Below are positions 990-61,006 of a stretch of DNA of 64,000 nt, piece after piece. The notes under the pieces were generated by a model, which worked only from the letters and a program-made list of their open reading frames with translations, did no database searches and was not told the origin of the DNA. The DNA lies in assembly GCA_964399995.1 (NCBI GenBank), contig CAYNTN010000007.1:226-64225 (forward strand), in the 5' to 3' direction. The translations under genes were made by a program, and so were the position numbers. Every line of letters begins with the position of its first letter. Positions within the stretch are counted from its first letter, which is position 1. Source of the DNA: an uncultured Ignavibacteriaceae bacterium. Lineage in GTDB: Bacteria; Bacteroidota; Ignavibacteria; Tepidaquicellales; Tepidaquicellaceae.

Positions 990-1043
990 CGGGTATTGGT
1001 ATTGAGTAAGTCAAATAACTCAAAACTCATAACTCAATACTCC
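990..1043. repeat. short inverted repeat array (GGTATTGAGTA ... ACTCAATACTCC) between convergent genes
   Basis: Starts 2 nt after the FGE stop and ends 1 nt before the S8 gene stop. The arms are built from about 7-nt units (NAWAACT x4 on the right). Confidence 0.7.
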
Positions 1044-2852
1044 TTACTTCAAAAGCAGCATTCTCTTTGTCATAATGAAATTTCCATCCGCTACCATTGA
1101 ATAAAAATAAACGCCGCTTGATAAACCGCCTCCGTTGAATGTAACTGAATAGCTTCCGGCGTTCTGTCTTTCGTTTACAATTGTCGAAACTTCTCTGCCG
1201 AGTGTGTTATAGATCTTTATGCTGATATTGCCGGCATCTTTGAGATTGTAGCTGATTACTGTTGAAGGATTGAACGGGTTAGGGATGTTTTGCTTTAATT
1301 CATAACCTTCAATTATTGATGCACTGCTGCCGGTATTTATTGAGGTCATTATTCTTGCGAGCTTTACAGCTTCCCAGCAGTTTATCAATCCCCAACCTCT
1401 TCTTCTGTTCGGTGCAAATGCACTGTCTGCAGTCTGTGTCAGAAGTTGTCTTACCTGCATTGGAGTGAGACCCGGATTTGCAGAAAGTATTATTGCACAA
1501 ACTCCCGCAGTCATAGGACACGAGAAAGATGTTCCGCTGCCTGAGGAATAACCTGTGTTACCAGATCCTGACTGAGCAACTACATTGCCGTTTCCTAATG
1601 CACAAACATCAGGTTTTATTCTGCCATCAACTGATAATCCGACTGATGAAAATGAAGATCTGTTTTTATTTGCATTTACCGAACCGACACAGATTACACT
1701 GTCGCCGTCTGAAGGAGCGCCGAGAGTGTTGTGAGTTGCGTGGTATCCTTCATTACCGGCTGAGTTACAGACAATTATTCCTTTATTGACAGCAAGATCC
1801 GCACCGATAGTAATGACACAACTGTCTCCGTTCATCCATGTCCAGTCATAAGAACGGATTGAACCCGGATCCATTCCGATGTATCCAAGCGAGCTTGTAA
1901 TAATATCCGCGCCAAGACTGTCAGCCCACTCTGCAGCAGCAATCCAGTTGTCTTCTTCTAGCGGCGTTTCGCTTTCTGTATTTTCTGTCTTTGCTAAAAT
2001 ATACTTAGATCTGAAAGCCGGTGAAATTAAATTCCCCGGTCTGTATCCGCCAACTAAAGATAATGTTGCTGTTCCGTGTGAACCCTCTCCCATCTGTCCA
2101 TTTTCATTAGCTACATTTGTATCATGATTTACAAAGTCATAAGTCCGAAGTCCTCTTGACCTTATCGAATCAAATGAAGGATGCTGAAGATTATCAAATC
2201 CCGCATCAAAAGAAGCAATCAAAACTCCCTGACCTTTGTATCCGCTGTCATGAGCCATAGGTGCATTGATAAGTTCCATTTGCGCAAGCGAGCTACCGTA
2301 GTTAAGCTGATAATCATTATCATCCGAAATCGCATAATTTTCCGGAATAATTTCTTGTAGTTTTTTTAATTCAATATCTTCCGCGTTCTTTTTAAATTTT
2401 ATTACAAGATCAACCTTCTTTACATAATCGTGATGGATAATTTGTTCGAGCTGAACTTTCGTTGCATAGCACGAAACGCTGTTAAACCATTTCGATTTAT
2501 GTTTTATTTCAATGCCTGAGTTTTTCAGACCGGAAATGTAATTATTGCTAACCGGTAGATCGGTAATATCAACTAAAGCATTAACCGGCTTAACTTTTTT
2601 TCTTCTGTCAATCGCCTTTTGAGTAAGATACAATTCAGGATGAGCAAGTAAATAATTCACGTTGGTTCCTTTATCAGCAAAGTTAATCCATACGAGTATC
2701 TTTTCATCATCGGTTCTTACATTCATCTCGGACATAAGATTTTTACCGAGCTTGTATTGACTGCTGAAATTATTGCTTCCGAGAAGAGAAAACATTGTAA
2801 AGAAGGAAGCTATTACAAATATAAAAGAGGGGAACGATTTTTTGCTTTTCAT
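1044..2852 (-). CDS. secreted S8 (subtilisin-family) serine peptidase with T9SS C-terminal sorting domain
   Basis: Signal peptide. Asp/His/Ser triad contexts SFDAGFD, GSHGTATLS, GTSFSCPMTAG. C-terminus NIPNPFNPSTVISYNL...GVYFYSM...KRMLLLK is a type-A T9SS CTD. Confidence 0.9.
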   Translation of the reverse strand: MKSKKSFPSFIFVIASFFTMFSLLGSNNFSSQYKLGKNLMSEMNVRTDDEKILVWINFADKGTNVNYLLAHPELYLTQKAIDRRKKVKPVNALVDITDLPVSNNYISGLKNSGIEIKHKSKWFNSVSCYATKVQLEQIIHHDYVKKVDLVIKFKKNAEDIELKKLQEIIPENYAISDDNDYQLNYGSSLAQMELINAPMAHDSGYKGQGVLIASFDAGFDNLQHPSFDSIRSRGLRTYDFVNHDTNVANENGQMGEGSHGTATLSLVGGYRPGNLISPAFRSKYILAKTENTESETPLEEDNWIAAAEWADSLGADIITSSLGYIGMDPGSIRSYDWTWMNGDSCVITIGADLAVNKGIIVCNSAGNEGYHATHNTLGAPSDGDSVICVGSVNANKNRSSFSSVGLSVDGRIKPDVCALGNGNVVAQSGSGNTGYSSGSGTSFSCPMTAGVCAIILSANPGLTPMQVRQLLTQTADSAFAPNRRRGWGLINCWEAVKLARIMTSINTGSSASIIEGYELKQNIPNPFNPSTVISYNLKDAGNISIKIYNTLGREVSTIVNERQNAGSYSVTFNGGGLSSGVYFYSMVADGNFIMTKRMLLLK

Positions 2853-2950
2853 TTGGATTGGGAAAGTTTGTTTGATACTGTAAAAATTGTTTTGTTAAAA
2901 TTAAGCATTTTAGATTTAATATTCTAAACTTAATTAAATGGTAAAAGATT

Positions 2951-3074
2951 TCGATTAGTTGATTGGTTAATTTATTGATTTCGTTAATTTGTTGATTTGT
3001 TAAAATTAGTTCAGTCACGTACAGACAAACCAATTAACCAGTCAACCAATTAACCAGTTAACCAGTCAACCAAT
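2951..3074. repeat. inverted short-tandem-repeat arrays (TTGATTGGTTAA-like / TTAACCAGTCAA-like)
   Basis: Left arm 2951-3003 and right arm 3028-3074 are approximate reverse complements built from tandem 7-8-nt units. They fill the spacer between the two S8 genes. Confidence 0.7.
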
Positions 3075-3076
3075 AT

Positions 3077-5116
3077 TTAAGGACGATAAACGCTCACAAA
3101 ATTGTAGGAATTTTCATAAGCCAGTAAAATATCATTCAGATCAATTATATTTTCACCCGTCAGGTCAGTATTAACATATCCTGTTACAAAGTTCGAAGCG
3201 TCATTGTAAATTGCAATTACATCCGGAAGCCCGATCACTCCATCTTTAATGACATCCCCGTTATACAAAGTCCATTTCACGCCTGCTTTCTTTAAATTAT
3301 TTCCAAAAGCCTGAGCTGAATCACTTGTGAAATTATAAGATATATTGTTTGTATTAAAACTCAATGGATTTCTGCTCCATGTTTCCAGTCCGCTGCGGTG
3401 TGAGATCTGTAAATAATAATCTGATGCGCTTAAAATATTGTTAAACATTAAAGAAGCATTCCCTGATGAATTCAGAGTCTCTTTTGCAGAATCAATTGTA
3501 TTGAAAGGGGAAACATTACTTCTTAAATAAACTCTTACTGTATCATTAATCATAAAGTTCGATCCTGAATTATAAAGACCTTCAATCAGTAATGTCAGAT
3601 TCAGAGTTTTCGATCTTGCGAGCTTCACCGCTTCCCAGCAGTTTATCAGTCCCCAGCCTCTTCTTCTGTTAGGTGCAAAGGCACTGTCAGCTGTTTGTGT
3701 CAGTAACTGCCATACCTGACGCGGTGTGAGGTTCGGATTTGCAGAAAGTAATACTGCACAAACTCCTGCAGTCATCGGACATGAAAAAGATGTCCCGCTT
3801 CCCGTTGTATATCCTGTACTTCCGGAACCGGGAGCAGCTGTATAATTTCCGCTGCCTAATGCACATACATCCGGTTTGATTCTTCCGTCAACTGACAATC
3901 CTACCGATGAAAATGAAGATCTGTTTTTATTTGAATTCACCGAACCGACACAAATTACACTGTCACCGTCTGAAGGTGCAACGAGTGTGTTATGGGTTGA
4001 ATTAAATCCTTCATTGCCGGCTGAGTTGCAGACAATAATTCCTTTATTCACTGCAAGATCAGCACCGATAGTAATCACACAGCTGTCTCCGTTCATCCAT
4101 GTCCAGTCATACGACCGGATGGATCCGAAATCCATATCAAGATATCCCAGAGAACTTGTAATGATATCGGCTCCAAGACTGTCAGCCCATTCAGCTGCAG
4201 CGATCCAGTTGTCTTCTTCGAGTGGTGTCTCACTGTCTGTATTTTCAGTCTTTGCAACAATATACTTTGATCTGAAAGCAGGTGAGATCAGACTTCCCGG
4301 TCTGTAGCCGCCAACAAGTGAAAGGGTCATCGTTCCGTGCGAGCCTTCACCCATCTGTCCGGATTGGTTGGCTATAATTGTATCATGATTCACAAAGTCA
4401 TATGTTCTTATTCCTCTTGCCCGTATAGAGTCAAATGCAGGATGCTGCAGATTGTCAACTCCGGTATCGAAAGATGCAATCAAAACTCCTTGACCTTTGT
4501 ATCCGCTGTCATGTGCCATTGGAGCATTTATGATCTGCATCTGAGCAAGTGAATTACCATAGTTTAAAATATAGTTGACATTGTTTATACCTCCGCTATT
4601 GTCCTCTTCAGTCAGCGGATATTTTTTTTTTAATTCAATATCTTCAACACTCTTTTTAAATTTCATTACAAGGTCCGCCTTTTTCACATAATCATAATTG
4701 ATAATTTGTTCGAGCTGAACTTTCGTAACATAGCACGAAACCCTGTTAAACCACTTTGATTTATTCTTTACTTCTATGCCGGAATTCTCAAGGTCTGAAA
4801 TGTATACACCATTTAATGGTAAGTCTGTAAAATCTACTAAAGAATTTACGGGTTTGACTTTCTTTCTTCTGTCAATTGCTTTTTGAGTAAGATATAATTC
4901 CGGATGTGTCAACAAATAACTTGTGTTATTTCCTTTATCGGAAAGTTCAAGCCAAACAAGAATTTTTTCATCATCAGTTCTTACATTCATTTCTGACATC
5001 AGACTTTTGCCGAGTTTGTACTGATTACTGAAATTATTGATTCCGGGAAGTAAAAATATTAAAATAAAAGATAATATAGCAAGAAAAAACACAGAGTTGG
5101 AATTTTTGATTTTCAT
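3077..5116 (-). CDS. secreted S8 serine peptidase paralog with C-terminal beta-sandwich plus dockerin-like module
   Basis: Catalytic region near-identical to 1044..2852. The last 175 aa are replaced by LNLTLLIEG...GDVIKDGVIGLPDVIAIYN...TDLTGENIIDLNDILLAYEN...VYRP. Start moved to MKIKNSN (signal peptide); the ORF also opens at 5128. Confidence 0.85.
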   Translation of the reverse strand: MKIKNSNSVFFLAILSFILIFLLPGINNFSNQYKLGKSLMSEMNVRTDDEKILVWLELSDKGNNTSYLLTHPELYLTQKAIDRRKKVKPVNSLVDFTDLPLNGVYISDLENSGIEVKNKSKWFNRVSCYVTKVQLEQIINYDYVKKADLVMKFKKSVEDIELKKKYPLTEEDNSGGINNVNYILNYGNSLAQMQIINAPMAHDSGYKGQGVLIASFDTGVDNLQHPAFDSIRARGIRTYDFVNHDTIIANQSGQMGEGSHGTMTLSLVGGYRPGSLISPAFRSKYIVAKTENTDSETPLEEDNWIAAAEWADSLGADIITSSLGYLDMDFGSIRSYDWTWMNGDSCVITIGADLAVNKGIIVCNSAGNEGFNSTHNTLVAPSDGDSVICVGSVNSNKNRSSFSSVGLSVDGRIKPDVCALGSGNYTAAPGSGSTGYTTGSGTSFSCPMTAGVCAVLLSANPNLTPRQVWQLLTQTADSAFAPNRRRGWGLINCWEAVKLARSKTLNLTLLIEGLYNSGSNFMINDTVRVYLRSNVSPFNTIDSAKETLNSSGNASLMFNNILSASDYYLQISHRSGLETWSRNPLSFNTNNISYNFTSDSAQAFGNNLKKAGVKWTLYNGDVIKDGVIGLPDVIAIYNDASNFVTGYVNTDLTGENIIDLNDILLAYENSYNFVSVYRP

Positions 5117-5296
5117 AGGAATGGGCAAATATTGTTTTTGAAGGAAAATTGTTTTGGTACTTTATACATGTTAAAATTAGAGTACTAAAACCTTAAATTA
5201 AATGTCAAAATACATCGGATTCCGCTGATTGGAATTGATTCGAAGGCTTGTACACTACATTTTTTCTCGAAGATGTTCGCAGATTATTAGATTCAG

Positions 5297-5330
5297 AAAA
5301 AAAACCCGGATGGCTTTTCAGCCAACCGGG
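5297..5330 (-). terminator. rho-independent terminator after 5358..5969
   Basis: Minus strand reads CCCGGTTGGC-tgaaaa-GCCATCCGGG followed by T8, 28 nt downstream of the stop. Confidence 0.7.
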
Positions 5331-5357
5331 CTTGGATTACGATTTACAAAATTAATT

Positions 5358-5969
5358 CTATGGTCTGCGAACCGTAACAAAATTAATGTTATTATTGAAT
5401 GCTATTATTACATCATTTAAATCTAAAACAGCATCTCCGCTTAAATCAGTAACTAATTCTCCGGTGGTAAAGATTGCGGCTTCATTGTATATTTGTAATA
5501 CTTCTGTGAGATCTATTGACCCATTTTGATAAATATCACCCTGATAGATTCTCCAGCCGGGAGCAACAAATGTTTGATTATTTCCAAATGCCTGCCCTGC
5601 GGCAGTCGTGAAATCATAAGCAAAGATACCTCCGCCTACTACCAAAATTGGTACAGAACTCCAGGTTTCAAATAAATTCCAGCCTTTAATTGAAATGTAA
5701 TAAAATCCGCCTATTATAATTGGAAATGGCGGAAAAGCTGCAACAGCATCACCGTTTAAATCTATCACTGCAGGACCTGAAGTTATTACTCCGAATGGTG
5801 CAACACCTGCATGAAGTGACACTTCTATTGGAATTGTATAATTCGTCGGATATGTGTGACCTTGAAGCATACATGTAACAGTTTGAGCGTTAGTTTTCAA
5901 ATTAACAGTTATAAAGATTATACTGAAAGCCACGCATGTTACGATGGTGAATTTAACACGTGTTTTCAT
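5358..5969 (-). CDS. small secreted protein consisting of signal peptide plus beta-sandwich/dockerin-like module
   Basis: 203 aa. C-terminus ETWSSVP...AYDFTTAAGQAFGNN...YQGDIYQNGSIDLTEVLQIYN...TDLSGDAVLDLNDVIIAFNN...VRRP aligns with the modules of 3077, 6925 and 12659. Confidence 0.75.
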   Translation of the reverse strand: MKTRVKFTIVTCVAFSIIFITVNLKTNAQTVTCMLQGHTYPTNYTIPIEVSLHAGVAPFGVITSGPAVIDLNGDAVAAFPPFPIIIGGFYYISIKGWNLFETWSSVPILVVGGGIFAYDFTTAAGQAFGNNQTFVAPGWRIYQGDIYQNGSIDLTEVLQIYNEAAIFTTGELVTDLSGDAVLDLNDVIIAFNNNINFVTVRRP

Positions 5970-5998
5970 TATAGTTTTATTTTTAATTTTATTAATTA

Positions 5999-6032
5999 TT
6001 TGAAATTTGACATTTGAAATTTGTAATTGTAG
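5999..6032. repeat. heptamer tandem array (TTTGAAA/TTTGACA/TTTGTAA)
   Basis: tttgaaa tttgaca tttgaaa tttgtaa ttgtag, read directly; lies just upstream of the 5969 start. Confidence 0.6.
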
Positions 6033-6311: not shown

Positions 6312-6352
6312 TTGTGAACAAAACCCGGATTACTTTTCAGCCATCCGGGTTT
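6312..6352 (-). terminator. terminator-like hairpin downstream of CTD remnant
   Basis: Minus strand AAACCCGGAT-ggctgaaaagta-ATCCGGGTTT, then TGTTCAC (weak T tract). Near-identical stem to the hairpins at 5297 and 6852. Confidence 0.45.
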
Positions 6353-6384
6353 ACAAACAAGTTACATGCTAGTGGTCAGTTACT

Positions 6385-6560
6385 TTACATTCGTTTAACA
6401 ACAGAGAAATTTCCTGCCGTTATTTTATAAAAGTACTCTCCGCTTGCAAATCTGCTTCCATCAAATTTAAACTTCATATCTTCCCGGTGAAAACTTCTCA
6501 TTAACAAGTACATCAACTTCCTTTCCCGAGATACCATACACCTTCAAAGAAACAAATTCC
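6385..6560 (-). pseudogene. remnant of a T9SS C-terminal sorting domain (frameshifted, no upstream gene body)
   Basis: Minus-strand translation SLKVYGISGKEVDVLVNEKFSPGRYEV / frameshift / KFDGSRFASGEYFYKITAGNFSVVKRM*. No intact ORF in the track. Confidence 0.7.
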
Positions 6561-6851
6561 AAATTCGAAATCTCAAATTCCAAAAATCCTAATCCAGACA
6601 TTCATTCCTCAATATTCAATATCCCTCCACACTTATTTCTGTTATCATATTAATTTTCTTACCATTTGAGATGAATTTGACTTATGACAGTCTAACTGCT
6701 ACAGTCCGATTCAAAATGTTGTCGTTTCGTTTTATCTTAATGGTTATTTCGCTCATTATATTACTTAGATTTAATAATCCGCTTTTTATTTCATCAAAAA
6801 TAATACGAATTTAGATTCTACAATAAAACACTTACTTCATTCTAAAAGCAT

Positions 6852-6890
6852 TAAAATAAAAAACCCGGATTCTTAAAAGCCATCCGGGTT
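6852..6890 (-). terminator. rho-independent terminator after 6925..9672
   Basis: Minus strand AACCCGGAT-ggcttttaaga-ATCCGGGTT followed by TTTTATTTT. Confidence 0.7.
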
Positions 6891-6924
6891 CAATCATCTT
6901 AACGCCATGAAATAAATTCAATTC

Positions 6925-14992: not shown

Positions 14993-15108
14993 TTTAATTT
15001 TTCTTTTCAATGCTTAAAAGGGCTTTAGTTTAAAATTCCCCGGACAACCAAATCAGCTGCCCGGGTTATTTTGTTTCTTCCTGTTTCTTCCTTTAATGAG
15101 TTTGTATT

Positions 15109-15175
15109 ACAACTTTCAACTTTCAACTTTCAACTTTTACTTTTACTTTTAACTTTCAACTTTCAACTTTTAACT
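15109..15175. repeat. heptamer tandem array (AACTTTC/AACTTTT)
   Basis: caactttcaactttcaactttcaacttttacttttacttttaactttcaactttcaacttttaac, read directly. Same unit family as 24935, 25153 and 28215. Confidence 0.85.
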
Positions 15176-24761: not shown

Positions 24762-24934
24762 TGGAATTTACAGGATAATTGATAGTTGATTTAATTCTGA
24801 TTCATTGTATTGATTTACTTAACAACACGAAATGAATTTAAATTACAATCGAATGATTTTTTCCGAGGGTTTGATTTACTTCTATATCTTAAAATATAAA
24901 ACAAAAAATTAAATTGCCATAGCAAATGTAAAAA

Positions 24935-30055: not shown

Positions 30056-30057
30056 AA

Positions 30058-45542: not shown

Positions 45543-45550
45543 ATTATTTT

Positions 45551-47101
45551 TTAATTTCGGTTTAAAAGAATTGAAACAATGATAAAAATCATTATAGAGA
45601 TCATTACAAATATAATGTTTTGAAAAACAAAAATCTGAATCAAAAATAAAATCAATCCAAGAAACATTGAAAATATAACCTCAATGAACTTGGAAGCCGA
45701 ACTGAACTTTGTACTTTCCAGAGTAAACGGATAAACCTTGTCAAACATCATCGAAATGGAATTGATCAGATAAATTCCGGCGGAGATAAATAAAATATTA
45801 ATAATAACTGTACCGGGATCAGCTTTAAAGCATAGTAAAACAGTCATTGCAATTATTACGGGCAAAATAAACGCTGCATATATAAACTTGGCAGCTCCTT
45901 TAAGTATAGAAGCTTTTTCCTTTATGGGAACAGAATTGTAAATCCATTCGGTATTTAAAGAACTGTCATCAAGTATTTTGGTATTGGACACAAGCAGTCG
46001 CGAACACATAATCAATGTAAATGTGACAGACGGACTGATGACAGGAATGAAAGTTTTAAAAAAAGCTCCTATCCCCGTAGTTTTATTAAAAAAAAGAAGA
46101 TGCGGCAAATCCGAGATTATACCAATGATTACAAACAAAAGCGGCATGACTGCAATAGGAAAGTATTTCACTCTCAGAAATTTCGAATTTTGAAGTTGTT
46201 CCTTTACAAGATAAAACGAAGCTCTTTCATAATTATCGGACAGAATGTAATTATCAATACAACTTTTTATAAAAGGGAAATTGAACCCTGGCTTTAATAG
46301 TGAACGGTTTGATTTCAATACCTTTATCTTCCCGGAAAGTGTGTAATAGTTTTTTGAAATCAAAAAATAAACTAACCCAAAAACCGAAGCCGAAAGCATT
46401 AAGCAAATCAGAAAATCGGGTAAATTATAGACTGCACTTGAGAATAATGTTTGAGGTAGAAATTTTACAGGACCATATTCTAAAATGCTTGCTCTGATAA
46501 AAAGTTCTTTGGGTACGGATACTGCCTTTGAAGCAAGGGTAGATGAATAAAATATAAATACGAAGAATAATATCTGAAGAAGATTTAATACCAATGAGGC
46601 TTTTGCTTTAAAATACTTAAGGGCAAAAACATAAATTAAAATAAGAATACCCGAGGAAAAGTAACAAAACAATAAATTTGAAACTAAAAAAAAAACTGTC
46701 CTGAGCAGGTCACCGCTAAAAAAATAAAAAAAGATAATTTGAGGCAACGAAGATGAGAGCATGAAAAACAAAAGAAAAATGATCGCCGATAAAAATTTGG
46801 CTTTAAAAACTGCCGAGCTGCTGACCGGTAATGTAATGAGAACTTCCATGCTTCGTGAAGCAAGAAACAGATTGTCAAAATCCGTCAAGATAATAAGAGC
46901 CAGCAGGAACAAATTGGAGGTAAACGCTAGAATGATAAAACTGTGCTCATCGAATGATATAAAATAATTATACGACAGAATTGTGTTTGCAAACAAGTAT
47001 GCTACCAGAATCCCGAATATTTTTTTCTTCGCCGAACTTTCCCTATCTCTGTAATCGAGCTTCTGAAATAATGAAAATAAATTTAACGTTACCCTGTTCA
47101 A
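45551..47101 (-). CDS. polytopic membrane protein of unknown function
   Basis: 516 aa with more than 10 hydrophobic segments. No family recognised. Confidence 0.55.
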   Translation of the reverse strand: MNRVTLNLFSLFQKLDYRDRESSAKKKIFGILVAYLFANTILSYNYFISFDEHSFIILAFTSNLFLLALIILTDFDNLFLASRSMEVLITLPVSSSAVFKAKFLSAIIFLLFFMLSSSLPQIIFFYFFSGDLLRTVFFLVSNLLFCYFSSGILILIYVFALKYFKAKASLVLNLLQILFFVFIFYSSTLASKAVSVPKELFIRASILEYGPVKFLPQTLFSSAVYNLPDFLICLMLSASVFGLVYFLISKNYYTLSGKIKVLKSNRSLLKPGFNFPFIKSCIDNYILSDNYERASFYLVKEQLQNSKFLRVKYFPIAVMPLLFVIIGIISDLPHLLFFNKTTGIGAFFKTFIPVISPSVTFTLIMCSRLLVSNTKILDDSSLNTEWIYNSVPIKEKASILKGAAKFIYAAFILPVIIAMTVLLCFKADPGTVIINILFISAGIYLINSISMMFDKVYPFTLESTKFSSASKFIEVIFSMFLGLILFLIQIFVFQNIIFVMISIMIFIIVSILLNRN

Positions 47102-47110
47102 GAATTTCTT

Positions 47111-48160
47111 CTATTTGTTTTTTAATTTATTCTGTTTAAGCTTTGCTTTGTATTCCTTAATTGCCTGCTGGTGATGAGCAAAATTTTCGGTGAATTTATG
47201 TCCCCCGTCACCCGTGGCAACAAAAAACAAGTAATTATGCCGGGCAGGATTCAGAGCAGCTCTGATGGCAGAAATTCCGGGATTATTTATGGGTCCCGGC
47301 GGAAGCCCTTTATTCAGATATGTATTATAGGGAGATTTAACTTTTAAATCCTCAAACAGCAGTCTCGGTTTAGGACCGCCCGGCAGAATGTATTGAATGG
47401 TCGGATCAGCTTCAAGCCGCATTCCTTTATTGAGCCGGTTTATATAAACTCCCGCAATGACAGGCTTCTCTTCATCAATCATTGTCTCACCCTCTATGAT
47501 TGATGCGAGAATAATTGTGTTTAGCAATGTAGTTTGTCTTTCAGCAATTTCAGATTGGATATCTTTTTCTTCGAGTATCTTTTTCCTGAATTCATTAAAT
47601 AATATCTGTACCAGTTTTTTTTCAGTAACAGAAGGTGAGACATCATAAGTATCCGGATAAAGAAACCCTTCAAGATTTTTTATCTTACCCGAAAGACCTA
47701 ATATATTTATTAACGAATCATTTGTTGCTTCTTTTAAGAATTTTTCTCCTGTCAGTGAAAGTTTTTTTTCTGAAATTTTTGCTATCTGTCTGAGAGTTGA
47801 GCCGGGGGGTATTGTAATTCTGACCAGCTGCTGGACCGTTTTATCTGTTAATATTGAAATCAAATCAGAATTATTCATTCCATTTTTTAAAAGATAACTA
47901 TTGGATATAATCTGATTTTCTTTACCGGAAAGTTTTACAGCCAGTTTAAACAAAAACGGATCTGCAATTATGTCAGCTGATTTGAGTTCTGAAATTATCT
48001 CATCTAAATTTTTACCTGATTCAACGTTGAATTTTTTTTCCCCCTCACCTATCCAGTAATATCTTGAATAAAAAAGCTGGTAACCAATGAAGCACAAGAG
48101 CAGTAAATCAATAAGCAAAACTGCCTTGTAAAACTTCTTCAGATTAGAAATGAATAGCAA
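47111..48160 (-). CDS. mltG: endolytic murein transglycosylase MltG (YceG family)
   Basis: N-terminal TM plus YceG motifs (LASIIEGE, RLEADPTIQY, SPYNTY...GLPPGPI.NPG). Confidence 0.85.
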   Translation of the reverse strand: MLFISNLKKFYKAVLLIDLLLLCFIGYQLFYSRYYWIGEGEKKFNVESGKNLDEIISELKSADIIADPFLFKLAVKLSGKENQIISNSYLLKNGMNNSDLISILTDKTVQQLVRITIPPGSTLRQIAKISEKKLSLTGEKFLKEATNDSLINILGLSGKIKNLEGFLYPDTYDVSPSVTEKKLVQILFNEFRKKILEEKDIQSEIAERQTTLLNTIILASIIEGETMIDEEKPVIAGVYINRLNKGMRLEADPTIQYILPGGPKPRLLFEDLKVKSPYNTYLNKGLPPGPINNPGISAIRAALNPARHNYLFFVATGDGGHKFTENFAHHQQAIKEYKAKLKQNKLKNK

Positions 48161-48223
48161 TGTCGTTTTATCAGTTATGAAAAAATTTTAGCGCACGGTC
48201 TTGTTATACTAAAATTAATAAAC

Positions 48224-50212
48224 CTATTTTTTTTGAGGAATCTGATCAGTATTCATCAACCTGTCTACTTCATTTAAATTCCTTTTGATTTCATTATTGT
48301 TCGGATCAATTGCGAGAGCTTTTTCAAGCTGAACTTTAGCTTCGTCGTACCTTTTATTGTTCTTATAAAATACTCCTAAAACAACCAGTGCTTCTTTAAA
48401 GTCAGGATACAGCTGAAGGGCTTTAAATAAGTTTTTTTCGACGCCGGCATTATCTTTGTCTATTAAACTTGCCTGTGCCAGATAAAAATAAGCCAATGAA
48501 CTGTTCGGATCAGTTCCCAGTATGCGGTTCATAACATATTTGATCTGAGGAGAGGCTTTTTGTTTTACTAATGAAGGAGCATTCATCAGAAGAGAGTTTG
48601 CTTCTCTTGATAATATTTGTGTATCGGGATTGAATTTGTAGATCTCCATTATTTCCGGAGGAAGGGTATAGGCAGTTGTTAGCAAAGGTGTCTGGTTTGA
48701 AACCCGGTACCACTCACGAAGAAAGGCAAGATATGTAACCTTATTATCTTTAAGATACTTTGTCATGAAATTCACGTAATTAGCATCATTAATTTTATTA
48801 ATCAGCTCCGGTGTAACGAGTCCGGCTATATCGACAATTTTTCGACCGCTGTAATAACCGATAGCTCCTACATCATGTGTTGCAATTACATCATTTTCAT
48901 CAGTGTTTTTCTTCAGCCATAGTGCCGCCGTGACCTGTCTCTGATATATATATTTGCATTCCTTTGCATATGTTTTCTTGGATTCATCATAGTCTTTCAC
49001 ACTCATAAAGTATACAATGGCAACCCATGCATAGAAAATTATTTTCGCAAATAGGGAATTATCTGAAATTTTATTCAGAAATTTTGCAAAATCCCTGAAT
49101 CCGATGGTTGACAGTAAAATAAAAAAAGGAATGACAGGCATCAAATACCTTCCGAATCTGTGTGCATAAGGGAGTTTTAGCCAATAGATAAAAATTAAAG
49201 CAAATATAAAGAGAACGTATACTGTGTTAGGATTATATGTCTTCTTATAAACATCATAAATAACTTTCAAAACGGAAAAAATAAATCCGATCATCAGAAC
49301 AAGATATGCCCCTGTTTTAAAATAATCCCAGACTTCGTATTTAAGAAAATCAGTTCTGCTTCTGAACTCGGGAGAATAATATGTCAGCTTTGCATTATAT
49401 GTATTCGGTAAAAGAGAACCTGATAAAGAGTAATTCATAATAAAATACAGACCTACTATACCGGCAAAAATCAATAAGATTTTCTTTAGCTCACTGCCTG
49501 AGAATAAAATCAAATCCGAGTGATCTTTTGAATAGTATATAACTAAAATATAATCAATTATAAGTGCTGCGATAAATGCAACTCCGTCAGGTCTTGTCCA
49601 TAAAATAAGACCCAGCATAATTGCAAACGGAACTGCGCTTCTTTTTTTATAAAAATAAATGCAAAGAATAAGGATCAAAATATACATCATAGTTTCCATT
49701 CCGGATCCGGTAATAAAATTCATCCATTTATCTATGATGAAAAGTCCCGAGCACAGAAGTGCAAAGATAATTTCATTGTCAAACTCTAAGCTGCAAAGTT
49801 TATAAAATGCAAAAGAAGCAGCTCCAAAAAATATCATTCCGAGAATATAACTTATTTCCATTTCGTTCCCGCTTACAAAAAATGCCAAAGCAAGAATAAA
49901 AGTATATAATGGTGAAGTTGAACCCGCAGTCACCATTTCTGTTTTGAAATATGAAAAGCTAAAGTAATGAGCAAGGTTTTTTGCAAACGTAAGGTGTATC
50001 CATGGGTCGTCCAATGGAAAACTCAAGAACTTATTCTCTTGCTGAGCAAATCTTATGAATAAAAAGGAAAGAATGAGTGGTACAATTACTACAAGAACAT
50101 TTATTATTATTTTGAGAGGTTTTTTGGGTTTAAAATGATTTTCAAAGTTATATTTTGTATAATCATCTCTGCTTGTTCTCTTTTTTTTTACCGGGATTTT
50201 TATATTTTTCAT
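48224..50212 (-). CDS. polytopic membrane protein (GT-C/ArnT-like?) with C-terminal TPR repeats
   Basis: 662 aa. About 11 TM in the N-terminal 400 aa. C-terminal TPR-like repeats (AYFYLAQASL..., ALQLYPDFKEA, ALAIDPNNNE). Confidence 0.6.
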   Translation of the reverse strand: MKNIKIPVKKKRTSRDDYTKYNFENHFKPKKPLKIIINVLVVIVPLILSFLFIRFAQQENKFLSFPLDDPWIHLTFAKNLAHYFSFSYFKTEMVTAGSTSPLYTFILALAFFVSGNEMEISYILGMIFFGAASFAFYKLCSLEFDNEIIFALLCSGLFIIDKWMNFITGSGMETMMYILILILCIYFYKKRSAVPFAIMLGLILWTRPDGVAFIAALIIDYILVIYYSKDHSDLILFSGSELKKILLIFAGIVGLYFIMNYSLSGSLLPNTYNAKLTYYSPEFRSRTDFLKYEVWDYFKTGAYLVLMIGFIFSVLKVIYDVYKKTYNPNTVYVLFIFALIFIYWLKLPYAHRFGRYLMPVIPFFILLSTIGFRDFAKFLNKISDNSLFAKIIFYAWVAIVYFMSVKDYDESKKTYAKECKYIYQRQVTAALWLKKNTDENDVIATHDVGAIGYYSGRKIVDIAGLVTPELINKINDANYVNFMTKYLKDNKVTYLAFLREWYRVSNQTPLLTTAYTLPPEIMEIYKFNPDTQILSREANSLLMNAPSLVKQKASPQIKYVMNRILGTDPNSSLAYFYLAQASLIDKDNAGVEKNLFKALQLYPDFKEALVVLGVFYKNNKRYDEAKVQLEKALAIDPNNNEIKRNLNEVDRLMNTDQIPQKK

Positions 50213-50494
50213 ATCTTTTAAAATAAATATTTAACGTCGTAATTTCAATTTTAAATCATTTATTTTTAAAATTTTGCATTATTTGCTTACCCTTTCAGTG
50301 ATTTTTAATGTAATTGATATTAACAGGTAACGCAGTGATGAGCTATTTATCTGCTGAAAATTAGATAAAAATAAAAAAAAACTGTGATTAAAATGAATAT
50401 CAACAGGAGAAAATGTTTGCTTGCCGTTATCCAATGTTAACTCTAATATTAAATATGAATCAATATTACGGCAGATTTCCAAAACAAGAAGGTC

Positions 50495-50827: not shown

Positions 50828-50880
50828 GGCTTATAATTTTTTTACAAAGATATTGAATTCATCACTTACTTGCTATTAAT

Positions 50881-51019
50881 TCAAATGTCAGATGTCAGAA
50901 GTCAAACGTCAGAAGTCAAACGTCAGAAGTCAGAAGTCAGAGGCAAATGCCAGATGTCAAATGTCAAATGTCTGACGTCTGACATCTGACGTTTCACGTT
51001 TGACGTTTGACGTTTGACG
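50881..51019. repeat. back-to-back inverted heptamer arrays (GTCAGAA/GTCAAAC x about 13 then TCTGACG/TTTGACG x about 7)
   Basis: The arrays switch to their reverse complement at about 50970 with no spacer. Lies between divergent ybjQ-like and ndh genes. Confidence 0.9.
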
Positions 51020-51077
51020 ATACTTATTTCAATGTTTAATTAAAAAATTAGAAAGATTAATTTCGCCAAATATTAAA

Positions 51078-52431: not shown

Positions 52432-52761
52432 TTGAATAAAAAGAAAAAACATTACTGCTATTTTCTTCATCTCTATCCGCAGTACTATGATCACAGCAAA
52501 TGGACAGAGAAGGAAGACGAGCTTATAGGAATTCATTTTAGATATTTACAGAATCTGCTTGAAAGGAAAATTTTATTTCTTGCCGGGCGAACTGTGAATG
52601 AACCAATGACAGAAAAAGATTGCGGTATTGCTATTCTTGAAGTTGATAGTTTAGAAGAAGCACGAAGCATTATGGAAAATGATCCGGCTGTGAAAGGCAA
52701 ACTTATGCTTGCAGAAGTGTTTGAATTCTCTTTAGCTTTGTTCCGTGACAGTATTGACTAG
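52432..52761 (+). CDS. YciI-family protein
   Basis: 109 aa. HF.YL..L...G.....GR......G.AI.E..S.EEA..IM..DPAV pattern. TTG start. Confidence 0.6.
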   Translation: MNKKKKHYCYFLHLYPQYYDHSKWTEKEDELIGIHFRYLQNLLERKILFLAGRTVNEPMTEKDCGIAILEVDSLEEARSIMENDPAVKGKLMLAEVFEFSLALFRDSID

Positions 52762-52851
52762 TAAGTATTGGGTATTGAGTAGTGAGTATTTGTAATTTGT
52801 AATTTGTAATTTGTAATTTGTAATTTGTAACTCGTAATCTGTAATTTGAAA
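52762..52851. repeat. heptamer array (NTGAGTA then TTTGTAA x5, CTCGTAA, TCTGTAA)
   Basis: Begins the base after the YciI stop. About 12 units. The first units resemble the 990-1012 array. Confidence 0.9.
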
Positions 52852-52862
52852 TTAAAAAAACC

Positions 52863-53185: not shown

Positions 53186-53243
53186 TTTTACGTCTTGCGT
53201 TCACGTCTTACGTCTTACGTCTTACGTTTCACGTTTACGTTCC
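53186..53243. repeat. heptamer array (CGTCTTA/CGTTTCA)
   Basis: ttttacg tcttgcg ttcacg tcttacg tcttacg tcttacg tttcacg tttacg. Overlaps the dinB stop codon (53235-53237). Confidence 0.85.
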
Positions 53244-54419
53244 AATCCCGACTCTAATTATCCCTTCACCATACTTTGATTTTATTTTATCAAGCGCATA
53301 GTAAGGTAAAATGATCTTTTTTTCAAAGAGATTCAGATTGCATTCACGCGTGTCGAGATGCAGATCGTAAACTCCCATTCCGAACTGGCGTGCCATCAAT
53401 TCCTTACAAGGCTTACGGAACTTACCATATATTTTTACTGCTGCATTAAAAATTTCCCTGTCATCATTTGTAAAGAAGGGCAGCTTTACAATATGCGAGG
53501 CATAGGTTAAGTTTTCGAATCTTACGGAAAGATGCATGTAGCCGGCGGTCAGATCTTTAGAACGCAGCTTACGGCAGATGTACTCCCCTATCCTTCTGAT
53601 CTCTTTTATGACATCCTCAGGCTTATAGATAGGTTCGGATAAAGTGTGATAATGATTTAAGGACTTTTCCTTTTTTTCTTTGAGGACTATCTCAGAAGTA
53701 TCTTCGCCGCGCGCAAGCTTGCGGAAAATTATCCCGTTGACACCGAATTCTTTTTTAAGCAGACGCTCGTTTGAATTTGCAAGCTCACCGATGGTCTTAA
53801 TTCCCAGCGTACACATGCGAATCTCGATTCTCCTTCCGATTCCCCAGAGCTTATTCGCAGGCATTGAATATATTTTATCTTTATTCTCCTGTGTCACTAC
53901 CGAAAGTCCGTCCGGCTTCTGAAGCTTTGTTGCAAGCTTTGCAAAAGTTTTGTTGTATGAAAGACCTATTGATGCAGTAAGATTTTCGAGCTCGCGGATC
54001 TTTCTTTTAATGGCATTGGCAATTCTCGTTGCTTCATAGAAATTCTTTGCAACTCCCGAGAGATCAGCAAAGCACTCGTCTATGCTGTACTGTTCAATGC
54101 ATTCAGCCGGCACGAACTCCTTCAGCGCCTCAAGAAGATTCAGCATGATCGCTTCATACTTTGGACCGTAACATGGGAGCGAGATCAGTTCCGGACAGAT
54201 CTTTTTTGCTTCGACAACTGACATTCCCGTATCCACACCCATTGCTCTTGCTTCATAAGATGCAGTCATCACGATCCCTTTCTTGCCCTCCATTCCGCCG
54301 ACAGAAACCGGCTTTCCCCGAAGCTTCAGATTATCACGCTGTTCGACCTGAGCAAAGAATGCATCGAAGTCAATGTGAACAAAGAATCTCTTCTGATGCG
54401 ACACGATTTTGAAATTCAT
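53235..54419 (-). CDS. dinB: Y-family DNA polymerase IV
   Basis: FFVHIDFDAFFAQVEQRDNLKLRGKPVSVGG, SIDECFADL, little-finger region. Start set at MNFKIV; the track ORF has a 37-codon non-conserved extension. Confidence 0.85.
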   Translation of the reverse strand: MNFKIVSHQKRFFVHIDFDAFFAQVEQRDNLKLRGKPVSVGGMEGKKGIVMTASYEARAMGVDTGMSVVEAKKICPELISLPCYGPKYEAIMLNLLEALKEFVPAECIEQYSIDECFADLSGVAKNFYEATRIANAIKRKIRELENLTASIGLSYNKTFAKLATKLQKPDGLSVVTQENKDKIYSMPANKLWGIGRRIEIRMCTLGIKTIGELANSNERLLKKEFGVNGIIFRKLARGEDTSEIVLKEKKEKSLNHYHTLSEPIYKPEDVIKEIRRIGEYICRKLRSKDLTAGYMHLSVRFENLTYASHIVKLPFFTNDDREIFNAAVKIYGKFRKPCKELMARQFGMGVYDLHLDTRECNLNLFEKKIILPYYALDKIKSKYGEGIIRVGIGT

Positions 54420-54578
54420 GTCTTTGATATGCGGGAAAGAATAAAGCGGCATTATGCGCACGCGCTTGAATAGATTGCTGAAATCATTTCCCTCGCGGGG
54501 AATAAAATATGACGAACTGTGTAACTGCATACCGTAATAATATAGGGTATGTAGAAAAGATTAAAGAGAAAAATAATT
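54293..54578. repeat. direct repeat, left copy (dinB codons 1-42 plus about 160 bp upstream)
   Basis: Aligns with 58968..59252. The first 127 nt (coding) are identical. The upstream part has about 10 substitutions and one small indel by hand alignment. Confidence 0.9.
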
Positions 54579-58620: not shown

Positions 58621-59205
58621 TCACAAACTTTTATAAATCCCCATAACTTCATCTTTTCCGTATTTATTCTCCAGCTGCTTCACCGTAAAGTGACCTTCCG
58701 CCATTCTCTGAAAGTGATTCATGAATACCAGATTTATTGCTCCTCCTGATGCAGCGCCCATTACAGGAACAGACTTCGCTGCCGCTCCTTCGGAAATTAT
58801 TATTCCAAATCGCGAAGCTACTTTTGAAATAAAACTGACTAATGCCGGCGCGCTTTCTCTTACCATCCCCTTATGCAGTAGGTATTTATTAGCCTCAGTA
58901 ACCGCCTGTGCAAGTGCTCCTCTTGTAACATAATATGCGCTGTCTGAAAAATCATCTCTCTTTGAATTTCCGCCGACAGAAACCGGCTTTCCCCGAAGCT
59001 TCAGATTATCACGCTGTTCGACCTGAGCAAAGAATGCATCGAAGTCAATGTGAACAAAGAATCTCTTCTGATGCGACACGATTTTGAAATTCATATCTTT
59101 AATATGCGGGAAATAATACAGCGGCATTAAGCGCACGTGCTTGAATAGATTGCTTAAATCATTTCCCTCGCGGGGAATAAAGTATGACGAACTGTGTAAT
59201 TGCAT
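58621..59205 (-). pseudogene. chimeric ORF: duplicated dinB 5' end (42 codons) fused in frame to the 3' part of an EcsC-family gene
   Basis: N-terminus MNFKIVSHQKRFFVHIDFDAFFAQVEQRDNLKLRGKPVSVGG is identical to dinB. The remainder ...GAASGGAINLVFMNHFQRMAEGHFTVKQLENKYG is an EcsC-type C-terminus. Confidence 0.7.
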
Positions 59206-59252
59206 ACCTTAATAATATAGGGTGAGAAAAGAGATTAAAGAGAAAAATAATT
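58968..59252. repeat. direct repeat, right copy (dinB 5' end plus upstream region)
   Basis: See 54293..54578. Confidence 0.9.
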
Positions 59253-59364
59253 GCAGTGTCTTGAAAATTTTTGAAAATTAAATCAGCGTTCCAAATTATT
59301 CTATCAAATTTCTTAATTCTTATAAGTATATTTGCAGTACACACAAACTTAAATTCATTTCTCA

Positions 59365-60657
59365 ATGAGCACAGAATTATTGGAAATAAAAGAAAAGTAT
59401 CTTGCTGTATCGACAATGGCTGAAAATCTAATCGGCTCCGAGATAATACAGCTTGCCTGGCAGATAAATGAGAAGATAGCCAAAGGTCAGAAAATATATA
59501 ATCTTACAATCGGTGATTTTGATCCGAAAATTTTTCCTATCCCTGAATTACTGACAGAGGAAATCAAAAATGCTTATGATGATCATCAAACAAATTATCC
59601 GCCCGCGGAAGGCACTGCTGCTTTGAGAAAAGTAATTTCCGGTTATATACTTAAAAAAGGAAATCTCGATTATAGCCCCGATGAAATATTAGTTACAAGC
59701 GGCGCGCGTCCGGTTATATTTGCCGCTTATAATACAATAGTAGATTTAGATGAAATTGTAATTTTTCCCGTTCCGTCATGGAATAATAATCACTACTGCC
59801 ATCTTACAAGATCAAGAGTAATTACAGTGGAAACAAAACCGGAGGATAATTTCATGCCGACGGCAAAAGAACTCGAGCCGCATATCAAAAAAGCCACTCT
59901 TATATCTCTTTGCTCGCCGCTTAATCCGACCGGTACCTGTTTTACGGAATCAGAGATAAAAAATATTACCGACATGGTTGTTGATGAAAATATCAGAAGG
60001 AAAGATAATCAAAAACCTTTGTATGTTTTGTTTGATCAGATATACTGGCAGCTTACTCTCGGTGACACTGAACATTACAATCCTGTCGTGCTGAACCCTG
60101 CAATGAGAGATTATACGATCTTTGTTGACGGTATAAGCAAGGTTTTTGCGGCTACCGGCGTTAGAGTCGGATGGGGCTACGGTCCGAAAAGAATTATTGA
60201 TAAGATGAAATCAATAACCTCACACATGGGAGCATGGGCTCCGAAAGCTGAACAGGTAGCAGTTTCAAAATATCTTATGAATGAAAAGCACGTTGATTCA
60301 TATCTTGATATGTTTAAAGATGAACTTTACAAAAGAGTCCATAAATTTTACCAGAAATTTTCGGAACTGAAGAACGAAGGTTTTAATGTTGACGTTATTG
60401 ATCCGCAGGCTGCGCTTTATGTTACAGTTAAAATTGATCTGATAGGATTAAAGAAAGAAGACGGAACAGTAATCAAGACTACAAAAGATACTACAGAATT
60501 TCTTATTGAAGAAGGTAAGGTTGCTCTCGTACCGTTCTCATGCTTTGGATCATCACCTGATTCGACATGGTACAGAGTTTCTGTCGGCACATGCACAGTC
60601 GAACAGATAGACGATATAATGAAAAATCTCAGAAATGCTCTGGTAAAACTGTCATAG
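59365..60657 (+). CDS. PLP-dependent aminotransferase, class I/II (aspartate aminotransferase-like)
   Basis: 430 aa. NYPP.EG, SPLNPTG, PLP-lysine context DGISKVFAATGVRVGW. Confidence 0.8.
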   Translation: MSTELLEIKEKYLAVSTMAENLIGSEIIQLAWQINEKIAKGQKIYNLTIGDFDPKIFPIPELLTEEIKNAYDDHQTNYPPAEGTAALRKVISGYILKKGNLDYSPDEILVTSGARPVIFAAYNTIVDLDEIVIFPVPSWNNNHYCHLTRSRVITVETKPEDNFMPTAKELEPHIKKATLISLCSPLNPTGTCFTESEIKNITDMVVDENIRRKDNQKPLYVLFDQIYWQLTLGDTEHYNPVVLNPAMRDYTIFVDGISKVFAATGVRVGWGYGPKRIIDKMKSITSHMGAWAPKAEQVAVSKYLMNEKHVDSYLDMFKDELYKRVHKFYQKFSELKNEGFNVDVIDPQAALYVTVKIDLIGLKKEDGTVIKTTKDTTEFLIEEGKVALVPFSCFGSSPDSTWYRVSVGTCTVEQIDDIMKNLRNALVKLS

Positions 60658-60663
60658 TTATAT

Positions 60664-61006
60664 TTACCACTAAGGTACTAAGATCACTAAGAAAAATATT
60701 TTATCAAATGTGAGATTATTTGTAATTTCACTATAGAAGCAATAATTGAATTTCGACGTTTATCATTCTGAACGAATGGAGCGCGAAGCGGAGTGATTTA
60801 AAGAATCCAAATATAAGGTAGAATAGATTAATTTAATTGGATTCTTGCTCAGAATGATAAAAAAAATGTGTTTTGTGTTTTTTATATTACTAACAACATT
60901 TTCTACTTAGTGCCCTTAGTGTCTTCTATATAACTTCAAAAAATTTCTTCATTTTTGAAGTTATTTTTCAATAAACATAGGCTCCCTATCGGATACTTAG
61001 TGGTAA
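60664..61006. repeat. MITE-like element bounded by CACTAAG-family inverted repeats
   Basis: TTACCACTAAG (60664-60674) and CTTAGTGGTAA (60996-61006) form a perfect 11-bp IR. Further CACTAAG/CTTAGTG units lie inside both ends. Internal hairpins sit at 60763-60859 and 60932-60962. Confidence 0.6.

Follow-up and report, generated by a model that had tools for sequence, protein, structure and literature searches.

Tandem heptanucleotide arrays in the intergenic DNA of an Ignavibacteria subclade: simple-sequence repeats probably born by slippage and in part co-opted

The DNA considered here, 64,000 nucleotides of contig CAYNTN010000007.1 from an uncultured Ignavibacteriaceae bacterium (the window), carries tandem arrays of 7-nt units in many of its intergenic spacers. 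We consider it probable that these arrays are simple-sequence repeats similar to the short tandemly repeated repetitive (STRR) sequences of cyanobacteria, that they arose by slippage and proliferated in one subclade of the Ignavibacteria, and that some of them were co-opted. The arrays are lineage-specific, in that one Ignavibacteria subclade is rich in them whereas sister Ignavibacteria and outgroups are poor. The genes that flank the most informative arrays are glnA (25900-27354, minus strand), asnC (27580-28029, minus strand), the cytidine deaminase gene cda (ATG at 25276), an Omp85/PD40 gene referred to as omp (21876-24761, minus strand), the Tmemb_14 gene tm14 (ATG at 28276), and the periplasmic binding-protein gene sbp (30058-31203) and permease gene perm (29046-29942) of an ABC transporter.

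Our own detector found 23 period-7 arrays in the window compared with 0.1 expected from Markov-1 shuffles, and Tandem Repeats Finder placed period-7 arrays, with scores of up to 229, at essentially all of the coordinates given in an earlier preliminary description of this DNA. The tandem heptanucleotide arrays are thus real and non-random. At the looser detector setting (match +1, mismatch -2, score at least 10) periods 4-13 gave 0-6 arrays each; the stricter detector retained 13 arrays of period 7 and none of periods 3, 5, 6 and 8-13. The highest copy number, 27, belongs to a TTCACGA-type array at 27413-27600 and is followed by 16.7, 13.3, 11.6, 9.7, 9.4 and 8.7. Enrichment of period 7 in non-coding relative to coding DNA was evident in the window, where 1183 of 1237 array bases (96%) lie outside open reading frames (ORFs) of at least 100 aa. 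The arrays also abut start and stop codons, as had been noted: the array ending at 28275 adjoins the ATG at 28276, and that beginning at 25754 lies 1 nt past the cda stop. The statement that every spacer carries an array and that arrays fill most of the non-coding DNA was too strong, since arrays occupy 17 of the 37 spacers of at least 30 nt and about 11% of the non-coding DNA (crudely defined), their share of an individual spacer being 22-88%. Nor is the period constant; it is 7 at most loci, but Tandem Repeats Finder assigned period 8 to 2953-3074 and 34137/34247 and period 8-9 to a CACTAAG locus.

From the arrays it had been deduced that amplification is specific for length and independent of sequence, and the first half of this proposal stands. 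Across 601 kb of the window and its close relatives, two-copy period-7 repeats are about three-fold more frequent than in the null, and 41 of 164 perfect period-7 repeats (25%) extend beyond two copies, compared with 2 of 952 for period 4, 2 of 480 for period 5 and 1 of 195 for period 6, each below 1%. As perfect period-7 repeats exceed two copies far more often than those of periods 4-6, the growth of the arrays is length-specific. Independence of sequence did not hold, and the units are not unrelated as had been thought: the 110 arrays from 31 loci of the window and its relatives fall into only 40 unit classes, and the AAAAGTT/AAAGTTG family (AAAGTTR) makes up 20 of the 110 arrays and recurs in at least five non-orthologous spacers. 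In the window it occupies the tm14 leader, both sides of the cda/omp spacer and position 15110; in the relatives it is found in the sbp-perm spacer of L014, L017 and L084 and in the asnC-glnA spacer of L050. Within the window alone, 33 pairs of units differ by at most one mismatch (null mean 15.8, null maximum 43), which is suggestive only; the limited repertoire stands out better in the set of 31 loci. The units contain 25% G+C, with a run of three G solely in ATTTGGG. Scans of the window with Rfam at gathering thresholds and for tRNA and tmRNA gave no match. Two further ideas were rejected on the basis of the unit list. Planar bending of the DNA does not apply, in that A-tracts spaced by 7 bp are out of phase with the helix, and stop-adjacent units do not always hold a stop triplet, there being none in the ATTTGGG, AGTTACA and TTACGTC arrays.

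The best relatives of glnA come from metagenome-assembled genomes of Ignavibacteria, with up to 93% protein identity. One relative, L001 (JADJTX010000007.1), is syntenic with 21876-35499 and 44916-50273 of the window (about 18 kb) at 74-86% nucleotide identity. The G+C content of the window is low (35%). Ignavibacteria belong to the Fibrobacteres-Chlorobi-Bacteroidetes (FCB) group, and the window encodes a subtilase with a sorting domain of the type IX secretion system (T9SS), which agrees with the T9SS-bearing FCB context deduced previously. Array density was compared among sets of sequences grouped by the protein identity of their glutamine synthetase (GS, the glnA product) to that of the window, relatives with at least 83% being regarded as close. 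The window contains 28 period-7 arrays per 100 kb, genome contigs of close relatives 11.1, and an independent set of metagenome contigs of close relatives 19.4; the values for more distant Ignavibacteria are 2.5 and 0, and those for outgroups 1.7-1.8. In the outgroup loci, too, period 7 is the commonest long repeat. In 21 kb of L001 there are 18 period-7 arrays; in many other relatives there are 2-4. Periods 8 and 9 form minor classes among the relatives. The cda/omp spacer of L012 contains an array of about 370 nt made of some 40 copies of the 9-nt unit CNCACTCYA beside a GTATTGA heptamer array; related genomes are therefore also able to expand other periods.

Comparison of orthologous spacers revealed how the arrays arise and change. 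Most relatives have 9-45 nt between asnC and glnA; L001 has 125 nt and 5 units, the window 246 nt and 27 units, and both sets of units belong to one family. The same spacer contains nine copies of a different unit in L050 and two copies of the L050 unit in L002. The window array, which consists of TTCACGA-type units (27413-27600, plus strand), fills the spacer and reaches into asnC, whose final codons and stop it supplies. The cda leader array has 16.7 copies in the window and 6.5 copies of the same unit in L001, and the tm14 leader array 8.7 and 7 copies, respectively. Together with the 27 and 5 units beside asnC, these values show that copy numbers vary across related genomes, in keeping with the slippage predicted for direct arrays. 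The units themselves are replaced as well. In L002, L007, L014 and L044 the tm14 leader contains period-8 arrays; in L001 the position of the 24933-25013 array is taken by 4.4 copies of TTGATAA, and that of the 31801-31839 array by the unrelated units TAATTAC and AATACTC. The ATTTTAG/ATTTTTG unit at 27360-27394 is also present in L001. While arrays vary, the motifs that flank them are conserved, namely TTGACA-17-TATTTT and the palindrome TTGCCTTATTTTGTAAGGCAA before asnC and TTGATA-17-TAAATT before tm14. The palindrome is perfect, lies at 28110-28130 beside the TTGACA-17-TATTTT site, occurs in nearly all relatives and is probably the operator of the AsnC/Lrp-family regulator itself.

Arrays have also entered coding regions. 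In the window and in L001, heptamer units make up the final 21 coding bases of asnC together with its stop and thereby add a 5-aa tail (SLIENR*) to the protein; the original stop position, found in about 25 relatives, has been overrun by the array, and L050 has another array-encoded tail. Likewise, the ubiquitin-like protein encoded at 31321-31599 ends with ITAG* in seven relatives and has array-encoded tails in the window (ITAG-IRN*) and in L008. A 404-aa ORF of L001 runs through an array, its window homologue having 305 aa, so that ORF callers over-extend genes there. On both sides of its RING-finger gene, L001 further has GTATTGR arrays and inverse CTCAATAC arrays, which amount to about 600 nt (2281-4121 in locus coordinates), and the orthologous window spacer (33007-33201) has no array. 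Arrays are thus born locally in originally short spacers and change in copy number and, more slowly, in unit sequence. They stop only where the coding sequence resists; in some cases they have run past a stop codon and provided another in its place. As judged from the aligned spacers, these patterns fit birth in place followed by slippage rather than the insertion of a mobile element.

Many arrays occur as inverted pairs. Six such pairs were confirmed: 989-1043, 25754/25858, 29950/30028, 31585/31801, 50881/50973 and 24933/25152. Two entries of the preliminary description require amendment, as the pair at 2953-3074 has period 8 and that at 24935-25267 is better read in another way. The arrays at 24933 and 25152 flank back-to-back promoter-like sites (25025-25131), and on the sense strand of its respective gene each has the sequence ACUUUYA; two 5'-leader arrays in sense orientation are a better interpretation than a single RNA hairpin. 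The long hairpins expected of inverted pairs were predicted by folding, with RNA energies of -14 to -66 kcal/mol and z-scores of -4 to -9. At 991-1043, 2.5 copies of GGTATTG and 3.7 copies of the inverse AACTCAA/ACTCAAT form a hairpin that fills the 55-nt spacer between convergent genes (989-1043, -14.4/-17.5 kcal/mol, z -4.3/-5.4). The period-8 pair at 2953-3074 (GATTTGTT x6 and AACCAGTT x5.6; Tandem Repeats Finder periods 8/16/24) is located 2 nt past the stop of the subtilase gene 3077-5128 on the minus strand, and the segment 2945-3076 folds with -34 to -36 kcal/mol. A second period-8 pair at 34137-34262 (ACCTTATT x3 and AATAAGGT x2) yields -28.1 kcal/mol. In the divergent spacer at 50881-51019, 13.3 copies of TCAGAAG/TCAAATG (50881-50972) are followed by 6.7 copies of the inverse TGACGTT/TCTGACG; this near-palindrome, also detected as a self-inverse BLAST match, has the lowest energy (50875-51025, -65.6 kcal/mol, z -8.8). 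Between the convergent cda and glnA genes, 4.7 copies of ATTTGGG (25754-25786, plus strand) form the left arm and 4.7 copies of AAATTCC/AAATCCC (25858-25890, plus strand) the right arm of a hairpin in which a variant TCAAAAT unit on the right mirrors ATTTTGA on the left (25753-25899, -47.7 kcal/mol on the plus strand, with G-U pairs). At 31585-31612, 4 copies of GGAATTA overlap the last 5 codons of the ubiquitin-like ORF, and 5.6 copies of the inverse TTAATTC at 31801-31839 stop 3 nt short of the ThiF-family ATG (both plus strand).

These hairpins had been proposed as terminators, but their AT-rich stems of 25-35 bp, their long loops of 12-190 nt and the lack of a U tract mean that they are not canonical ones; an intrinsic terminator has a short GC-rich stem, a loop of 3-8 nt and a U tract. 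Ordinary terminators composed of a GC hairpin and a T run are also present in the window, e.g., at 28989-29019. A GC-rich hairpin, AAAACCCGGATnnnTTTTnAGCCAnCCGGGTT, flanked by A and T runs, occurs in three copies (5297-5340, 6316-6356, 6856-6895), which constitute a dispersed canonical terminator-like family distinct from the heptamer arrays. The cda/glnA hairpin is conserved in L001, L002 and L044, and in L012 and L018 a canonical bidirectional terminator (GC hairpin with A and T run flanks) stands in its place. The spacer 5241-5357, which is paralogous to 2853-3076, contains a CCCGGAT...CCGGG hairpin followed by a T run and no arrays at that place.

The most informative hairpin is that between sbp and perm, where 5.3 copies of AAGTTAC and 3.9 copies of GTAACTT (29950-30054, minus strand) form the arms of an intercistronic structure that ends 3 nt from the sbp stop codon. 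The segment 29943-30057 folds as RNA with -39.4 kcal/mol (z -9.3) and as DNA with -27.3 kcal/mol (z -8.3). A pair was counted as complementary if the left unit and the reverse-complemented right unit differ by at most one mismatch; by this measure, such a pair is present at this position in 9 of 22 species. Five units are involved (AGTTACA; AATTACA; AGTTACG; AAGAATT/AGGAATT; AAGTTAA/AAGTTGA/AAAAGTT), and several further species have degenerate versions. In an alignment of eight species, 89% of the cells are paired, compared with 28-50% after the partners have been slid by 1-3 columns; 9 of 19 pairs have changed on both sides, and the 18 compensatory cells were matched by none of 500 shuffles.

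Direct arrays occupy the 5' leaders of genes that have no Shine-Dalgarno site. At five start codons an array ends close upstream, the distance being 0 nt (28276), 3 nt (31843), 8 nt (25276), 9 nt (27354) and 9 nt (52863). Upstream of tm14 a promoter-like site, TTGATA-17-TAAATT, which is conserved in relatives, ends at 28214, and 8.7 copies of ACTTTTA, 100% pure, extend from 28215 to the ATG (28215-28275, plus strand). It follows that the array makes up the entire predicted 5' untranslated region. The cda leader contains 16.7 copies of CTTTTAA/CTTTCAA (25152-25268, plus strand) that end 8 nt before the ATG. Facing it, 11.6 copies of AAAGTTG/AAAGTTA (24933-25013, plus strand) lie downstream of the promoter-like sites 25025-25064 and read as ACUUUYA on the sense strand of omp. 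Five copies of ATTTTAG/ATTTTTG (27360-27394, plus strand) end 9 nt upstream of the glnA start. Finally, 3-6 copies of GTATTGR followed by 9.4 copies of ATTTGTA (52750-52853, plus strand) cover 88% of a 101-nt spacer, beginning 3 nt past a stop codon and ending 9 nt before the ATG at 52863. Folding of 28205-28275 and of 15100-15180, which includes 9.7 copies of CAACTTT (15110-15175, plus strand) without predicted structure, resulted in 0.0 kcal/mol, and that of 52762-52862 in -5.9 kcal/mol. A promoter scan of the window found 26 sites against 25.8 in shuffles and hence no enrichment; only two promoter-like sites, which are also conserved in relatives, were used. In the window only 3 of the 33 genes with an ATG start have a Shine-Dalgarno-like motif, so an A/U-rich, structure-free leader is compatible with initiation here, as it is in the Bacteroidota in general. 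The more distant Ignavibacteria L034 and L040 have AAGGAG upstream of glnA. Leader arrays do not avoid G to a significant degree (about 6 of 10 lack it, judged from the unit list), nor is their orientation to the downstream gene fixed, that in L050 being opposite to that in the window.

According to the explanation we favor, the arrays would grow by replication slippage with a strong preference for steps of 7 nt, steps of 8 and 9 nt being minor and some units favored over others. Most arrays are probably near-neutral filler, and two subsets have the anatomy of working parts. Inverted pairs after stop codons or between cistrons would form long AT-rich hairpins that serve as 3'-end or intercistronic stabilizers or as substitutes for terminators, and by analogy they may act on the transcript as the repetitive extragenic palindromic (REP) element does between malE and malF. 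Direct arrays between promoter and start codon would provide structure-free A/U-rich 5' leaders where Shine-Dalgarno motifs are hardly used. The arms of the hairpins may be kept complementary by selection for pairing or by template switching between them. Loops of about 7 nt escape MutS-type mismatch repair, which leaves unexplained why periods 5 and 6 do not expand.

Several points weigh against this explanation. The putative functions of hairpins and leaders are inferred from position and conservation only, and slippage alone explains neither the preference for 7 over 5 or 6 nor the recurrence of units. The sbp-perm hairpin is missing in about half of the relatives and is therefore dispensable. 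The compensatory changes in its arms recur every 7 columns and result from concerted evolution, each arm being homogenized, so that the number of independent events is only about 3-4. When the folding energies of the sense and antisense strands of this hairpin were compared in 10 species, there was no consistent bias, so that selection at the level of RNA is inseparable from a process at the level of DNA. Exact-protein look-up and the metagenome scan, in which no contig exceeded 92% glnA protein identity, found no contig of the same species that spans an array.

It is possible, although we think it less likely, that the arrays are purely neutral or selfish repeat DNA that expands wherever selection allows and has not been co-opted for any function. 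The arms of the pairs would then owe their complementarity to intramolecular template switching (quasipalindrome correction) in single-stranded DNA hairpins rather than to selection on RNA. The absence of the sbp-perm hairpin from about half of the relatives and the lack of a sense-strand bias in its folding energies, both described above, favor this view, as does the ease with which arrays are gained, lost and replaced between species at about 80% nucleotide identity; arrays even damage the 3' ends of genes (asnC and the ubiquitin-like ORF). Arguing against complete neutrality is the persistence of inverted pairs at one spacer in species with 86-93% glnA protein identity while the unit turns over, the location of hairpins exactly where relatives or paralogous spacers have canonical terminators, and the retention of a tandem array in the tm14 leader of many species despite differences in unit and period.

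At the opposite extreme, the arrays could be more than passive products of slippage and form an actively maintained regulatory layer with a dedicated 7-nt-step activity, building-block units and jointly rewritten arms, which we regard as improbable. The 7-nt-step activity would reside in a variant polymerase or repair enzyme or in a factor that binds 7 nt per module, and the tandem units would be register-tolerant building blocks for RNA hairpins and structure-free leaders. If this were true, comparison of array-rich with array-poor sister lineages would identify the determinant of the 7-nt preference seen in bacterial repeats.

Quite improbable as well is the proposal that the arrays are multivalent sites for a protein each module of which recognizes about 7 nt. 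Such a protein could be a cold-shock- or S1-like binder of RNA or single-stranded DNA with 5' leaders as its target, a role that has been suggested for the TAACTGA repeats, or a nucleoid protein acting on DNA. Cold-shock domains bind T-rich heptamers. The limited repertoire of units, the pyrimidine-rich ACUUUYA on the sense strand of three leaders, and the position of the array ends 0-9 nt from start codons, like that of the TAACTGA repeats in Beggiatoaceae (PMC4679880), are consistent with such sites. A single sequence-specific binder would hardly cope with 40 unit classes and with orthologous leaders that differ in their unit and even have period 8. Moreover, with respect to the gene downstream, one unit has opposite orientations in L050 and in the window, and no candidate protein was identified.

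Spreading by transposition of a MITE (transposable element of the miniature inverted-repeat type) or of a REP element mobilized by a REP-associated tyrosine transposase (RAYT) is very unlikely. Such an element would account for the recurrence of unit families at several loci and for the many inverted pairs, but among loci built from one unit there are no common flanks, terminal repeats or target duplications, self-BLAST revealed no dispersed copies beyond the arrays, growth took place in situ (2 copies becoming 9, and 5 becoming 27), and no transposase was found among the 30 window proteins scanned. An artefact of assembly or sequencing, named at the outset as what would invalidate the arrays, can practically be dismissed: orthologous arrays are present in many independent long- and short-read assemblies of relatives, and a 2.2-kb Logan contig (L081, run SRR14932511) is 100% identical to 25239-27467, including the 25754/25858 pair. 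As this contig ends inside long arrays on both sides (it starts within 25152-25268), short-read assemblies break there, and the longest copy numbers could be wrong.

Repeats of this type are familiar from other bacteria. STRR sequences are tandem heptanucleotide arrays in the non-coding DNA of heterocystous cyanobacteria, with several units per genome and no established function. The window arrays resemble them in being dispersed over many non-coding loci and in having several different units; they differ in the phylum of the host, which is not a cyanobacterium, in their AT-rich units, and in that many are inverted pairs. The units of STRR1-3, which Mazel et al. are said to have reported in 1990 as CCCCAGT, TTGGTCA and CAACAGT, had no match among the 26 consensus units of the window. 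REP elements and bacterial interspersed mosaic elements (BIMEs) are enterobacterial, an example being the intercistronic REP of malE-malF. What they share with the present arrays is a stable hairpin located immediately behind a stop codon or, in an ABC-transporter operon, between the genes for the binding protein and the permease. A genome-wide consensus palindrome, typical of REP/BIME, is lacking here, where the stems consist of locus-specific tandem units, and no RAYT (Y1 transposase) was among the 30 proteins scanned in the 64-kb window. MITEs are characterized by terminal inverted repeats, a target-site duplication and a shared body, whereas the arrays have neither shared flanks nor dispersed copies in self-BLAST. 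Phase-variable contingency repeats vary in copy number between cells or strains of a single species and thereby switch a gene on or off; the present arrays lie in leaders and 3' regions and not between the -35 and -10 hexamers.

A close match is the class of long simple sequence repeats with units of 5-11 nt. As related in PMC4679880 and PMC4692102, heptanucleotides are the commonest long simple repeats in bacteria, and slippage was proposed as their origin, 7 nt being the DNA segment held by the polymerase (Mrazek 2007). The window arrays agree with this class as far as it is portrayed there: the units do not exceed 11 nt and occur beyond chance, heptanucleotides predominate, and units that are not multiples of three are mostly intergenic. 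What the survey is cited as stressing is large high-G+C genomes, whereas the present host is an ignavibacterium with 35% G+C and 28 arrays per 100 kb. In Xanthomonas, 70-75 inverted heptamer pairs of GGGAATC occur per genome, Nostoc has GGGGAYT, and the repeat type in Xanthomonas (single or inverted pair) is preserved between species while the length varies (Rehm 2015, PMC4692102). Intergenic heptamer arrays close to ORF ends and inverted pairs are common to both systems; however, Xanthomonas and Nostoc use a single G-rich, quadruplex-capable unit throughout the genome, and the present arrays have many AT-rich units, with a G tract in ATTTGGG alone, and arms that turn over together. TAACTGA direct repeats are reported from marine Beggiatoaceae, from cyanobacteria and from five Bacteroidetes, and in the Beggiatoaceae they end a short distance before start codons (MacGregor 2015, PMC4679880). 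Like them, the window arrays end a few nt before starts and are absent from orthologous spacers of close relatives, but they are additionally located at 3' ends and form hairpin pairs; TAACTGA is not in the window unit list. In the same study (PMC4679880), long arrays of several different heptamers within one spacer were noted for Gramella forsetii and Aequorivita sublithincola, contrary to the earlier impression that the FCB group lacked any such description. A literature search for heptamer or tandem repeat arrays in Ignavibacteria found no report. The kind of array is therefore already known, including in the FCB group and, as inverted heptamer pairs, in Xanthomonas; new are the lineage, the density, the graded series of relatives, the joint turnover of units in both arms of a hairpin, and the overrun of stop codons.

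Since the 2007 survey, what causes the preference for 7 nt has, to our knowledge, not been established, and the same holds for any function of heptanucleotide repeats. The clade offers a comparative system in which 0 to 28 arrays per 100 kb surround the same syntenic genes in closely related lineages. Births, expansions, turnover of units and stop overruns can be read from alignments, and one hairpin exhibits compensatory change from arm to arm. The arrays are of moderate interest, mainly as a tractable system for studying why the period is 7. In practice, short-read assemblies break at the arrays, and gene callers mis-set 3' ends and starts beside them.

The units of the remaining arrays are given for the plus strand. 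A direct array of 4.4 copies of ATTTGAA (5998-6028) lies 28 nt upstream of the start of the gene 5358-5969 on the minus strand, and 4.6 copies of CAAATTC (6553-6584) form a short degenerate direct array within 955 nt without a called ORF. A degenerate direct array of 4.9 copies of GTAACCC/GTAATTC is located at 34424-34457. At 35604-35655, 7.4 copies of ATTATCA lie at the 5' end of a UbiA-family gene (34481-35611, minus strand). Between convergent genes, 7.9 copies of TTACGTC (53188-53240) overlap the stop of a Y-family polymerase gene (53235-54530, minus strand). The CACTAAG-type repeat of period 8-9 at 60668-60692 has inverse copies at 60906-60921 and 60996, and a similar set is present at 33095-33147; these two loci may be copies of a small inverted-repeat element that is dispersed, instead of arrays peculiar to one locus.

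Among the neighboring genes, 31321-34119 comprises a conserved three-gene set that resembles a bacterial ubiquitin-like conjugation module. The first product is the ubiquitin-like protein of 92 aa with a ubiquitin/YukD fold, which is 95-100% identical in relatives and in the window extends past the terminal Gly by the 3-aa array-encoded tail. The second is a ThiF/E1-like protein (31843-33006), and the third (33202-34119) combines a zinc ribbon and an NTF2-like domain with a prokaryotic RING finger. A segment of 286 nt that covers the Y-family polymerase gene's 5' leader and N-terminal coding part is duplicated with 95% identity (54293-54578 and 58968-59252), the second copy heading a truncated 194-aa ORF; the approximately 4.4 kb between the duplicates, with DUF6883 and small unannotated ORFs, may be an insertion. 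Two tandem paralogous subtilase genes (1353-2976 and 3614-5240) have 78% nucleotide identity, and their homology extends about 120 nt into the upstream spacers; in Pfam, the T9SS sorting domain was assigned to the downstream copy only. The cumulative GC skew reaches its minimum near 31000, where gene orientation turns from mostly minus to mostly plus. A replication origin near 31 kb was considered and rejected: the switch in skew coincides with that in gene orientation and is probably a coding-strand effect.

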